A DNA stretch of 64,000 nucleotides from Escherichia coli (GTDB lineage: Bacteria; Pseudomonadota; Gammaproteobacteria; Enterobacterales; Enterobacteriaceae), in assembly GCF_003334315.1 (NCBI RefSeq), contig NZ_QOWR01000004.1. One strand, given 5' to 3'. The notes beneath the pieces are model-generated. The model was not told the DNA's origin, did not search any database, and was given only the letters and a program-made list of their open reading frames with translations. The position numbers were made by a program, and so were the translations under genes. Shown here one piece after another: positions 4,325 to 9,000 of this stretch. How positions within the stretch are numbered: position 1 is the stretch's first letter; the number at the start of each line of letters is the position of its first letter.

Positions 4325-5323
<999 letters not shown>

Positions 5324-5653
5324 TTTCTTGCGTTATTTTCGGCACCTTTTATGTAGCGAAGGTGCCGGAATATATTCTCTTTTGTTACTTATTTGTATAC
5401 CGTGCACAATATTTTTATCCCTCATATTTATAGGGTAAATTACCTGTAAAGTAGTGTCTAATTACCCGCCTCGCAAATTCCAGTTTTCAAATATCTATTT
5501 CAGGTCAAAAGATTGAATTATTCACTGGAGACGATTCGTAAATTCGCTGGATTTTTGACTAAAGTTTCTTTAGGATTTGTCTCATCGTATGATTAATTAC
5601 ACCAATCGTTCAACGTCTTGCTGATAAGTGATGGCGATTATATGAGGTTAGCA

Positions 5654-5782
5654 ATGCCTTCTGGAAATCAGGAACCCCGCCGCGATCCTGAATTAAAACG
5701 TAAAGCCTGGCTGGCGGTTTTTCTTGGTTCTGCACTTTTCTGGGTGGTTGTCGCACTGCTGATTTGGAAAGTGTGGGGATAA
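5654..5782 (+). CDS. ymiA: Small membrane protein YmiA (42 aa)
   Basis: Read from sequence: ATG..TAA encoding MPSGNQEPRRDPELKRKAWLAVFLGSALFWVVVALLIWKVWG; below ORF-track size cutoff; stop overlaps the yciX upstream frame. Confidence 0.7.
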   Translation: MPSGNQEPRRDPELKRKAWLAVFLGSALFWVVVALLIWKVWG

Positions 5783-5784
5783 CT

Positions 5785-5952
5785 ATGGTCGGTCAGGAGC
5801 AACTGGAGTCGTCACCATTATGCCAGCATAGTGACAATGAAACAGAAACGAAACGGGAATGTTCCGTCGTTATTCCAGACGACTGGCAACTAACATCGCA
5901 GCAGCAAGCCTTTATAGAACTGTTTGCTGAAGATGATCAGCCGAAACAATAA
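5785..5952 (+). CDS. yciX: Small protein YciX (55 aa)
   Basis: ORF track 5764..5952 (TTG-initiated); annotated here from internal ATG (MVGQEQLESSPLCQHSD...). Confidence 0.7.
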   Translation: MVGQEQLESSPLCQHSDNETETKRECSVVIPDDWQLTSQQQAFIELFAEDDQPKQ

Positions 5953-6065
5953 TTATCATCATTCTTATTACCCATTTTTAATGAATTACAGGGCTTTTAA
6001 TACACCGCAGCAATAACAGGTTGAGTTATCTCAACACAAAGTAATAACCGTTAAGGGTGTAGCCT

Positions 6066-6161
6066 ATGATCAACACAAATATGAAATATTGGTCCTGGAT
6101 GGGCGCGTTTTCTCTGTCGATGCTCTTCTGGGCCGAACTCCTCTGGATCATTACTCACTGA
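6066..6161 (+). CDS. Candidate 31-aa hydrophobic small protein upstream of acnA
   Basis: Read from sequence: MINTNMKYWSWMGAFSLSMLFWAELLWIITH; single predicted TM helix; not in ORF track (too short); not matched to a named gene. Confidence 0.3.
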   Translation: MINTNMKYWSWMGAFSLSMLFWAELLWIITH

Positions 6162-6324
6162 TCCCTGACCCCGTTGCGGCGGGGTTTTCATTTGCTTTGC
6201 CACAAGGTTTCTCCTCTTTTATCAATTTGGGTTGTTATCAAATCGTTACGCGATGTTTGTGTTATCTTTAATATTCACCCTGAAGAGAATCAGGGCTTCG
6301 CAACCCTGTCATTAAGGAGGAGCT

Positions 6325-9000
6325 ATGTCGTCAACCCTACGAGAAGCCAGTAAGGACGCGTTGCAGGCCAAAGATAAAACTTACCACTACTACAGCCTGC
6401 CGCTTGCTGCCAAATCACTGGGCGATATCACCCGTCTACCCAAGTCACTCAAAGTTTTGCTCGAAAACCTGCTGCGCTGGCAGGATGGTAACTCGGTTAC
6501 CGAAGAGGATATCCACGCGCTGGCGGGATGGCTGAAAAATGCCCATGCTGACCGTGAAATTGCCTACCGCCCGGCAAGGGTGCTGATGCAGGACTTTACC
6601 GGCGTACCTGCCGTTGTTGATCTGGCGGCAATGCGCGAAGCGGTTAAACGCCTCGGCGGCGATACTGCAAAGGTTAATCCGCTCTCACCGGTCGACCTGG
6701 TCATTGACCACTCGGTGACTGTCGATCGTTTTGGTGATGATGAGGCATTTGAAGAAAACGTACGCCTGGAAATGGAGCGCAACCACGAACGTTATGTGTT
6801 CCTGAAATGGGGAAAGCAGGCGTTCAGTCGGTTTAGCGTCGTGCCGCCAGGCACAGGCATTTGCCATCAGGTTAACCTCGAATATCTCGGCAAAGCAGTG
6901 TGGAGCGAATTGCAGGACGGTGAATGGATTGCTTATCCGGATACACTCGTTGGTACTGACTCGCACACCACCATGATCAACGGCCTTGGCGTGCTGGGGT
7001 GGGGCGTTGGTGGCATCGAAGCAGAAGCCGCAATGTTAGGCCAGCCGGTTTCCATGCTTATCCCGGACGTAGTGGGCTTCAAACTTACCGGAAAATTACG
7101 TGAAGGTATTACCGCCACAGACCTGGTTCTCACTGTTACCCAAATGCTGCGCAAACATGGCGTGGTGGGGAAATTCGTCGAATTTTATGGTGATGGTCTG
7201 GATTCACTACCGTTGGCGGATCGCGCCACCATTGCCAATATGTCGCCAGAATATGGTGCCACCTGTGGCTTCTTCCCAATCGATGCTGTAACCCTCGATT
7301 ACATGCGTTTAAGCGGGCGCAGCGAAGATCAGGTCGAGTTGGTCGAAAAATATGCCAAAGCGCAGGGCATGTGGCGTAACCCGGGCGATGAACCGATTTT
7401 TACCAGTACGTTAGAACTGGATATGAATGACGTTGAAGCGAGCCTGGCAGGGCCAAAACGCCCACAGGATCGCGTTGCACTGCCCGATGTACCAAAAGCA
7501 TTTGCCGCCAGTAACGAACTGGAAGTGAATGCCACGCATAAAGATCGCCAGCCGGTCGATTATGTTATGAACGGACATCAGTATCAGTTACCTGATGGCG
7601 CTGTGGTCATTGCTGCGATAACCTCGTGCACCAACACCTCTAACCCAAGTGTGCTGATGGCCGCAGGCTTGCTGGCGAAAAAAGCCGTAACTCTGGGCCT
7701 CAAGCGGCAACCATGGGTCAAAGCGTCGCTGGCACCGGGTTCGAAAGTCGTTTCTGATTATCTGGCAAAAGCGAAACTGACACCGTATCTCGACGAACTG
7801 GGGTTTAACCTTGTGGGATACGGTTGTACCACCTGTATTGGTAACTCTGGGCCGCTGCCCGATCCTATCGAAACGGCAATCAAAAAAGGCGATTTAACCG
7901 TCGGTGCGGTGCTGTCCGGCAACCGTAACTTTGAAGGCCGTATCCATCCGCTGGTTAAAACTAACTGGCTGGCCTCGCCGCCGCTGGTGGTTGCCTATGC
8001 GCTGGCGGGAAATATGAATATCAACCTGGCTTCTGAGCCTATCGGCCATGATCGCAAAGGCGATCCGGTTTATCTGAAAGATATCTGGCCATCGGCACAA
8101 GAAATTGCCCGTGCGGTAGAACAAGTCTCCACAGAAATGTTCCGCAAAGAGTACGCAGAAGTTTTTGAAGGCACAGCAGAGTGGAAGGGAATTCACGTCA
8201 CACGATCCGATACCTACGGTTGGCAGGAGGACTCAACCTATATTCGCTTATCGCCTTTCTTTGATGAAATGCAGGCAACACCAGCACCAGTGGAAGATAT
8301 TCACGGTGCGCGGATCCTCGCAATGCTGGGGGATTCAGTCACCACTGACCATATCTCTCCGGCGGGCAGTATTAAGCCCGACAGCCCAGCGGGTCGATAT
8401 CTACAAGGTCGGGGTGTTGAGCGAAAAGACTTTAACTCCTACGGTTCGCGGCGTGGTAACCATGAAGTGATGATGCGCGGCACCTTCGCCAATATTCGCA
8501 TCCGTAATGAAATGGTGCCTGGCGTTGAAGGGGGGATGACGCGGCATTTACCTTACAGCGACGTAGTCTCTATTTATGATGCTGCGATGCGCTATAAGCA
8601 GGAGCAAACGCCGCTGGCGGTGATTGCCGGGAAAGAGTATGGATCAGGCTCCAGTCGTGACTGGGCGGCAAAAGGTCCGCGTCTGCTTGGTATTCGTGTG
8701 GTGATTGCCGAATCGTTTGAACGAATTCACCGTTCGAATTTAATTGGCATGGGCATCCTGCCGCTGGAATTTCCGCAAGGCGTAACGCGTAAAACGTTAG
8801 GGCTAACCGGGGAAGAGAAGATTGATATTGGCGATCTGCAAAACCTACAACCCGGCGCGACGGTTTCGGTGACGCTTACGCGCGCGGATGGTAGCCAGGA
8901 AGTCGTACCCTGCCGTTGTCGTATCGACACCGCGACGGAGTTGACCTACTACCAGAACGACGGCATTTTGCATTATGTCATTCGTAATATGTTGAAGTAA
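6325..9000 (+). CDS. acnA: Aconitate hydratase A (891 aa)
   Basis: ORF track; RBS aggagg upstream; aconitase family motifs with Cys ligands; length 891 aa. Confidence 0.95.

Follow-up and report, generated by a model that had tools for sequence, protein, structure and literature searches.

The cysB-acnA interval and the ymiC gene

The window, by which we mean the whole stretch of 64,000 nt that was analyzed, comes from Escherichia coli contig NZ_QOWR01000004.1 (GCF_003334315.1) and shows the enterobacterial arrangement topA-cysB-acnA-ribA. Three short plus-strand frames, ymiA, yciX and ymiC, lie between cysB (4349-5323) and acnA (6325-9000); their coordinates and those of the associated signals are collected in Table 1.

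Table 1 Features between cysB and acnA, in coordinates of the window
Feature	Position	Strand	Description
Candidate degenerate PhoP box and -10 region	5563..5596	+	Block conserved ahead of ymiA, with AGTTTC-TTTAG-GATTTG followed by TATGATTAAT; putative promoter of the operon
ymiA	5654..5782	+	42 aa; first gene of the proposed operon; transmembrane helix most likely related to YmiC
yciX	5785..5952	+	55 aa, acidic, soluble; middle gene, start 2 nt past the ymiA stop
Rfam RF02079 'STnc180' match	5993..6195	+	ymiC 5' leader, ORF and terminator; mRNA segment
Conserved 5' leader motif	5999..6013	+	AATACACCGCAGCAA; invariant columns; putative function
Small leader hairpin	6020..6035	+	GTTGAG-TTAT-CTCAAC; other genera have a hairpin of another sequence in about this position
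Shine-Dalgarno-like AAGGGTG	6053..6059	+	6-12 nt before the ymiC ATG
ymiC CDS	6066..6161	+	ATG..TGA, 31 codons; single-pass small membrane protein
Intrinsic-terminator-like hairpin and T-run	6167..6195	+	GACCCCGTTGCGGCGGGGTT; begins 5 nt past the ymiC stop; presumed operon end

An earlier note, made from the sequence, had singled out the last of these frames as a candidate membrane peptide "about 160 bp" upstream of acnA and had left its annotation open. The translation of the frame, MINTNMKYWSWMGAFSLSMLFWAELLWIITH, matches the peptide of that note exactly, and the gap between its stop codon (6159-6161) and the acnA start is 163 nt. The frame is a real gene but not a candidate, being already annotated as ymiC: the peptide is identical in 31/31 positions to YmiC of E. 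coli K-12 MG1655 (b4741, YP_009518771.1), which is encoded at the same place between yciX and acnA. It scores 66.3 bits against the NCBIfam equivalog NF041484 ('small membrane protein YmiC'; cut-off 42) and 87.4 bits against Pfam PF23694, above the curated threshold and over model positions 1-31 of 31. In all E. coli records inspected the RefSeq product name is 'small membrane protein YmiC' and the accession WP_001310756.1. The cysB-acnA region was found in 5,422 of 5,426 complete E. coli genomes, and the genes under the region match, among the matches listed from RefSeq, are ymiA, yciX, ymiC and acnA.

The gene was named by VanOrsdel et al. in 2018, when its chromosomally SPA-tagged product was detected by immunoblot; a ribosome-profiling screen with tetracycline likewise scored ymiC as positive (PMC6001520). 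In a 2024-25 preprint using ribosome profiling at low Mg2+, YmiC is one of 17 small proteins induced by Mg2+ starvation, and a GFP-YmiC fusion localises to the cell periphery (PMC11429745). Translation, which the earlier note had proposed to check by ribosome profiling and an epitope tag, is thus documented by both approaches. With a name since 2018, RefSeq annotation, Pfam and NCBIfam models and an experimental study behind it, the finding itself adds nothing new; the recognition of a real 31-codon gene from raw sequence without tools serves as a positive control.

The lengths given earlier for the two upstream genes, 55 aa for yciX and 42 aa for ymiA, agree with the frames in Table 1. K-12 RefSeq annotates ymiA as 46 aa from ATG 5642, but the 42-aa form is favoured, because in the cross-genus alignment ATG 5642 is replaced by ACG, AAG or ATC in other genera while GAGG and ATG 5654 are kept, and because the NCBIfam YmiA model has a length of 42 positions. 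A search for a ribosome-binding site of ymiC, also suggested in the earlier note, turned up a Shine-Dalgarno (SD) sequence of moderate strength: the anti-SD duplex of AAGGGTG is calculated at -5.9 kcal/mol, compared with -6.3 for ymiA and -5.5 for yciX, and a G-rich element aligns at this position in other genera.

The description of the product as a Trp-rich, single-helix hydrophobic membrane peptide holds well. Trp accounts for 4 of the 31 residues, AlphaFold2 predicts one helix over residues 3-30 (pLDDT 88), and the peripheral GFP-YmiC signal (PMC11429745) fits this; the best 19-residue hydropathy window is 1.54 (residues 12-30), a value that is borderline for a classical transmembrane segment. 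On a helical wheel K7, W11, S18 and W22 fall within 60 degrees and so form one face. A search of the PDB found no relative.

Conservation of YmiC and its similarity to YmiA

Loci were sampled through the AcnA N-terminus and the region upstream of acnA was then inspected, a design that avoids bias to conserved peptides. The sample comprised at least nine Enterobacteriaceae loci, other Enterobacterales loci and Mangrovibacter; Salmonella and Klebsiella lie outside it, Salmonella being covered solely through the Rfam consensus. Within this sample the ymiC frame is kept at the same position, with 31-33 codons, in at least seven genera, and the core KYWSW..[FL][ST].S.LFW is present in E. coli, Enterobacter cloacae and two other 'Enterobacter' isolates as well as in Pseudocitrobacter, Superficieibacter and 'Enterobacter sp. 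Ag1'. Among the matches listed, two Citrobacter loci and Mangrovibacter retain ymiA and yciX and are devoid of ymiC. In the acnA-anchored sample, E. albertii has a deletion of ymiA-yciX-ymiC with the hairpin retained, and ymiC was not found upstream of acnA in Yersinia, Serratia, Rahnella, Photorhabdus, Providencia and Pectobacterium. Because it is missing in such close relatives as the two Citrobacter loci, Mangrovibacter and E. albertii, ymiC is dispensable.

Lack of conservation of the reading frame in related species would have refuted the earlier note; the frame is intact in related genera, with a codon-periodic pattern of substitution. The mean pairwise difference over 25 ungapped codons is 0.34 for the first, 0.19 for the second and 0.53 for the third codon position, and across the seven genera pS is 0.71 vs. 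a pN of 0.25 in the ymiC frame; as a control, pS was approximately equal to pN in both other frames of the same block. Where dS is unsaturated, dN/dS ranges from 0.12 to 0.39. A chance ORF was rejected on the grounds that the frame is kept across genera, that substitution in it is codon-periodic and that pN is well below pS, the frame being far more than such an ORF.

A profile search of 1.84 billion representative proteins gave only 17 clusters. About a dozen of these (clustered at 50% identity) hold intact members of 30-33 aa, all from Enterobacteriaceae, and the rest are frameshifted or read-through gene calls. Intact variants come from Enterobacter, Kosakonia, Yokenella, Atlantibacter, Cedecea and Citrobacter enshiensis. 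Of the members examined for their genomic context, the two most divergent (P0014 and P0011) are syntenic, with cysB-ymiA and acnA as flanks, and the position of ymiC downstream of ymiA (and of yciX if present) and directly upstream of acnA is conserved in the window, in the seven genera and in these two members. Seven residues, K7, Y8, W9, W11, S18, L20 and W22, are invariant in 15 YmiC sequences. Among E. coli alleles of the locus, which are diverged by about 3%, one synonymous change was seen in ymiC and none that alters the peptide; the inspected alleles share the same YmiC accession, whereas the accessions of YmiA and YciX differ. Taken together, the codon periodicity, the excess of pS over pN and the invariance both across genera and within E. 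coli argue that the YmiC peptide itself is under purifying selection along the whole helix.

The most similar sequence lies close by. Weak tblastn cross-matches were obtained between YmiC and the transmembrane segment of YmiA, and hhalign aligned the two families with 92.9% probability when 7 and 10 sequences were used and with 94.7% (P = 6e-8, 26 columns) when 15 and 16 were used, the alignment covering 24-26 columns over both runs. The aligned invariant pairs are K7/K19, W11/W23, F15/F27, S18/S30, L20/L32, F21/F33 and W22/W34. The hhalign score of 31.9 compares with 10.1 +/- 2.6 (maximum 20.6) when the YmiA transmembrane columns were shuffled 300 times, five small, unrelated transmembrane proteins gave probabilities of at most 1%, and an independent shuffle of BLOSUM column scores gave z = 5.4-6.1. 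The Pfam YmiA model (PF22868) has no match to E. coli YmiC at E <= 10, the link being seen by profile-profile comparison alone. Since the pattern K-x3-W-x3-F-x2-S-x-L-F-W, (near-)invariant in both families, is carried by the helix of YmiA (b4522; PF22868; NF000536), whose gene lies some 400 bp upstream of ymiC, the most likely interpretation is that YmiC represents a shortened paralogue of this helix. Over some 26 residues the similarity could in principle also reflect convergence on a common partner instead of common descent. A natural chimera of the two genes occurs in one E. coli assembly within a tandem duplication, ymiA-yciX-(YmiC1-11::YmiA24-46)-yciX-ymiC; its halves meet at a CCTGG microhomology, and the junction keeps exactly the register of the hhalign alignment.

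YmiA resembles YmiC in its membrane localisation and in its induction at low Mg2+ (PMC11429745). It differs from YmiC in carrying about 14 further residues at the N-terminus, which form a charged tail, and W-K-x-W-G at the C-terminus, and the two are placed in separate Pfam families. Overexpression of YmiA delays growth and elongates cells, whereas overexpression of YmiC is without effect (PMC11429745). No statement of YmiA-YmiC paralogy was found in the searchable papers that mention ymiC; this relation, the identity of STnc180 with ymiC mRNA and the three hairpin alleles (the latter two described below) may be side observations new to the literature. For these two orphan proteins of Mg2+ stress, the relation to each other yields a concrete hypothesis: they may form a heteromer or share a partner.

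Promoter, leader and terminator signals

The region upstream of ymiA shows PhoQ-dependent reporter activity and the region immediately upstream of ymiC negligible promoter activity, results from which a ymiA-yciX-ymiC operon was proposed (PMC11429745). The invariant columns of the conserved block upstream of ymiA are TTAGGATT, and locus L008 has GTTTTA-N5-GATTTA. The block (5563-5579) would be compatible with a degenerate PhoP box, which the PhoQ-dependent reporter activity (PMC11429745) fits; a search with the PhoP-box pattern at 3 mismatches gave 167 matches vs. about 125 expected and is thus not specific.

In the ymiC leader, the minimum-energy folds of E. coli and of loci L004, L007 and L009 (4 of 7 genera) show UACACC paired with GGUGUA of the SD region, a pairing (AAUACAC(C) with GGUGU(A)) that the Rfam consensus also depicts. 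No variation is seen in the paired bases, and the leader folds have z-scores of -2.1 to +0.1, not unusually stable compared with shuffled sequence, so that a structure sequestering the SD may be taken as a weak lead.

The hairpin that follows ymiC (6167-6186) has a calculated energy of -12.9 kcal/mol, and equivalent hairpins follow ymiC in six other genera. In E. coli 5 nt separate the stop codon from the hairpin; four genera have a spacer of about 9-14 nt, and in loci L007 and L010 it reaches about 30 and about 65 nt, respectively. Within E. coli, hairpin alleles were sorted by identity to window positions 6120-6250 across the 5,422 complete genomes. The intact type of the window, GGGGTTTTCATTT, is the less common one (at least 99% identity; 410 genomes). 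A band at 95-99% identity (3,869 genomes) includes the K-12 allele, GGGGTTGTCATTT, which is 97.7% identical and differs by three SNPs, one of them a T-to-G change inside the T-run. In a further 1,143 genomes (about 21%; 80-90% identity) a 14-bp deletion of 6177-6190 has removed the 3' arm and the T-run. The YmiC peptide is unchanged across all inspected hairpin alleles.

Downstream of the hairpin the window contains, at 6254-6270, the sequence TGTTTGTGTTATCTTTA, at which phospho-PhoP binds the proximal promoter of acnA according to a study in Salmonella (PMC10294627). PhoP may therefore act on the ymiA operon and on acnA independently.

Proposed role of YmiC and alternative readings

The explanation that we consider very probable as a whole is that ymiC is a genuine gene, the last cistron of a low-Mg2+ operon, and that it encodes a functional, selected peptide which is a shortened paralogue of YmiA. 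YmiC would be a 31-residue single-pass inner-membrane protein made from a transcript ymiA-yciX-ymiC that is induced via PhoQ/PhoP at low Mg2+ and that would end, in the window, at the intrinsic terminator past the ymiC stop. The functional product would be the peptide itself, beyond the mere act of translation, with selection keeping a stripe on the helix face (K7, W11, S18 and W22) plus Y8, W9 and L20. MgrB and MgtS work by binding larger membrane proteins. By analogy with these PhoP-regulated proteins, the YmiC helix probably exerts its action by contacting a helix of YmiA or of a larger membrane protein. All three proteins are short, span the inner membrane once and are induced at low Mg2+ via PhoQ/PhoP (PMC11429745), a likeness of topology and regulation for which no sequence relationship is claimed. 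Neither deletion nor overexpression of ymiC at low Mg2+ produced a phenotype (PMC11429745), which counts against this explanation.

The same stretch of DNA is catalogued in Rfam as STnc180 (RF02079), and the element could accordingly be read as an Hfq-associated sRNA, a riboregulator or dual-function RNA in which the ORF is secondary. The match is full length (200.8 bits vs. a gathering threshold of 50, model positions 1-208 of 208), the family goes back to Salmonella cDNAs co-immunoprecipitated with Hfq (PMC2515195), a hairpin with a U-tail closes the element, and the 5' leader motif does not vary between genera. Against this, the STnc180 probe of Sittka 2008 detected on Northern blots only species of 500-2000 nt, judged 'likely processed mRNA' (PMC2515195), the matches among related loci occur only where ymiC is present, and the consensus line of the family itself translates to a 31-aa YmiC orthologue. 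For these reasons STnc180 is the ymiC portion of an mRNA and not a stand-alone non-coding sRNA. The codon-periodic variation across genera, the loss of the 3' hairpin from about a fifth of E. coli genomes, the negligible promoter activity immediately upstream of ymiC (PMC11429745) and leader folds no more stable than shuffled sequence likewise speak against a riboregulator, a role that we regard as very unlikely; a pure sRNA was rejected because the stretch holds the complete ymiC ORF, with codon-periodic change and pN well below pS. Another reading, which a short membrane peptide in an sRNA-like locus might invite, is that of a hydrophobic peptide resembling a type I toxin, and a Shigella preprint lists YmiC among 'type I and II TA module components', without supporting data (bioRxiv 10.1101/2025.06.29.662172). 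Overexpression of YmiC, however, barely affects growth in a study in which the true toxin DinQ did slow it (PMC11429745), and ymiC stands in a sense operon with ymiA and yciX; on these two points the toxin was rejected, and it strikes us as extremely improbable. A consensus scan, in itself weak evidence, also detected no antisense promoter-like site over the ymiC ORF, the sole minus-strand site (5981-5952) lying outside it and pointing away.

A cis-acting role is a further reading, which we think unlikely. Here ymiC would be a uORF or leader of acnA, and a ribosome that reaches its stop codon would mask the hairpin's 5' arm, suppressing termination and allowing read-through into acnA from the operon or from a distal promoter. 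Such a distal promoter was reportedly mapped by Cunningham, Gruer and Guest in 1997 about 407 bp upstream of acnA, which would place ymiC within the acnA leader, but it is unconfirmed in the searchable literature. The stop codon is only 5 nt from the hairpin, and both the ymiA operon (PMC11429745) and the acnA proximal promoter (PMC10294627) are reported as PhoP-responsive. In Adams et al. 2021, ymiC-acnA appears among validated small ORFs that are followed within less than 200 nt by an RNA 3' end and regarded as potential uORF regulators (PMC7815308); that 3' end, however, is K-12 position 1335835, inside the start of acnA and away from the hairpin, and it is not Rho-dependent. The geometry of stop codon and terminator is not conserved either, ranging from 5 to about 65 nt between genera, and Citrobacter and E. 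albertii retain the acnA promoter block without ymiC. What is selected is the peptide sequence along the helix rather than translation alone: with seven invariant positions spread over residues 7-22 and the low dN/dS, the sequence is neither free to vary nor limited to a stalling motif. Because the hairpin exists in three alleles, including the 14-bp deletion in 1,143 of 5,422 genomes and the T-to-G change of the K-12 type, while the peptide stays invariant, a primarily cis-regulatory role is disfavoured. Some read-through coupling into acnA may nevertheless occur, especially in the deletion lineage.

Returning to the reading of YmiC as a selected membrane peptide, it can be extended into a proposal that we put forward as tentative and, on balance, doubtful: YmiC would have arisen by duplication of the YmiA helix, both proteins would act via a K-x3-W-x6-S-x3-W face on each other or on a shared partner, and the terminator alleles would set the level of PhoP-induced read-through into acnA in each lineage. 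In the papers that mention ymiC we found neither action through a shared helix face nor read-through dependent on terminator alleles. The loss, in certain lineages, of the terminator that separates a PhoP-induced operon from acnA amounts to a natural read-through experiment. A minor point concerns the curation of Rfam, where STnc180, which covers the same DNA as ymiC over its full length, is catalogued as non-coding despite its validated and selected ORF, although it is a coding mRNA segment.

Rfam STnc180 and the ymiC transcript

The part of the window that carries ymiC, the last cistron of the ymiA-yciX-ymiC operon between cysB and acnA, gave a full-length match (200.8 bits) to RF02079, "STnc180", which is filed in Rfam under the type non-coding sRNA. 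The entire validated ymiC ORF lies inside the matching stretch, and the consensus line of RF02079 itself translates into a 31-aa YmiC orthologue. The STnc180 transcripts described in the original paper were exclusively of 500-2000 nt (PMC2515195). RF02079 looks like an mRNA segment catalogued as an sRNA, and hence like an issue of Rfam curation.

The ymiC leader contains a motif, AAUACACC..CAGCAA, that shows no variation across genera; a similar motif is also found in Mangrovibacter, though ymiC is missing there. In 4 of 7 genera the leader sequence UACACC is able to pair with GGUGUA of the ymiC Shine-Dalgarno (SD) region, a pairing that might sequester the SD, but this is unproven because the ymiC leader folds were no more stable than those of shuffled sequences. 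The terminator hairpin that starts 5 nt after the ymiC stop codon occurs as three alleles among 5,422 complete E. coli genomes: 410 genomes have the hairpin intact, as in the window, 3,869 fall in a band of 95-99% identity that includes the K-12 allele with a T-to-G change in the T-run, and 1,143 carry a 14-bp deletion that removes the 3' arm and the T-run. The YmiC peptide was identical across every hairpin allele inspected.

Positions of the features in the window and in homologous loci (L-numbers)
Feature	Sequence	Position	Strand
Region examined for the ymiA start	window	5642-5656	
GAGG	window	5644-5647	
ymiA	window	5654-5782	
RF02079 match	window	5993-6195	+
ymiC leader motif	window	5999-6013	+
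GGUGUA, ymiC SD region	window	6055-6061	+
ymiC	window	6066-6161	+
Terminator hairpin alleles	window	6165-6190	
	L001	3672-3694	
	L083, L084	~870-880	
TGTTTGTGTTATCTTTA	window	6254-6270	+
acnA leader, CCCTG	window	6278-6282	+
acnA leader, CAGGG	window	6291-6295	+
acnA leader, CCCTG	window	6304-6308	+
Region of small-gene loss	L003	2240-2400	
Insertion sequences	L082	514-1211	
	L085	3594-4740	
Tandem duplication	L090	2589-3484	

Relationship between YmiA and YmiC

The transmembrane helices of YmiC and YmiA have K-x3-W-x3-F-x2-S-x-L-F-W in common, at positions that are invariant within the families. Alignment of the two with hhalign gave a probability of 94.7% and a score above all 300 composition-preserving shuffles. 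YmiA and YmiC are probable paralogues inside one operon, a relationship of which we found no mention in the searchable ymiC literature. One E. coli assembly (GCA_014330495.1, locus L090) carries a tandem duplication, ymiA-yciX-[chimera YmiC1-11::YmiA24-46]-yciX-ymiC, in which the chimera is joined at a CCTGG microhomology and its junction agrees in register with the YmiA/YmiC alignment; this arrangement is possibly an assembly artefact, since it is known from one contig only.

The K-12 RefSeq start of ymiA is ATG 5642, giving 46 aa, and this codon is replaced by ACG, AAG or ATC in L006, L007, L009 and L078. GAGG and the downstream ATG 5654 are kept across loci, and the NCBIfam YmiA model is 42 positions long. 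The real form of YmiA is probably the 42-aa one, judging from these sequences.

A Shigella transcriptome preprint places ymiC under "type I and II TA module components" (bioRxiv 10.1101/2025.06.29.662172). We found no evidence for this label, and YmiC overexpression was reported to be harmless in E. coli (PMC11429745).

Loss and disruption of the small genes

Escherichia albertii NBRC 107761 (L003) lacks ymiA, yciX and almost all of ymiC, leaving a cysB-acnA gap of only 263 bp. It still has the acnA promoter and the terminator hairpin, together with the conserved block that lies 5' of ymiA in the window. Two Citrobacter loci (L002 and L005) and that of Mangrovibacter (L078) have ymiA-yciX and are devoid of ymiC. 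Insertion sequences lie within the cluster in some E. coli strains, and IS1 lies under a split match in five of the strains listed (H1, H4, H5, H15 and H20). In the one strain inspected, H4 (L082), it is located between cysB and ymiA, ~100 bp 5' of ymiA, where it could upset the promoter of the ymiA operon. In strain 102651, yciX is broken by the IS5-family element ISKpn26.

The acnA promoter and leader

The acnA proximal promoter contains TGTTTGTGTTATCTTTA, reported as a PhoP-binding site at acnA of Salmonella Enteritidis (PMC10294627), and the surrounding block is near-invariant among the Enterobacteriaceae loci compared; PhoP may therefore target acnA as well as the operon of small proteins that precedes it. 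The 5' leader of acnA has a CCCTG/CAGGG/CCCTG layout, also present in most other Enterobacteriaceae loci, in which CAGGG is complementary to the CCCTG on each side of it, so that two mutually exclusive hairpins are possible. An RNA 3' end at K-12 position 1335835 was mapped shortly 3' of these segments (Adams et al., PMC7815308).
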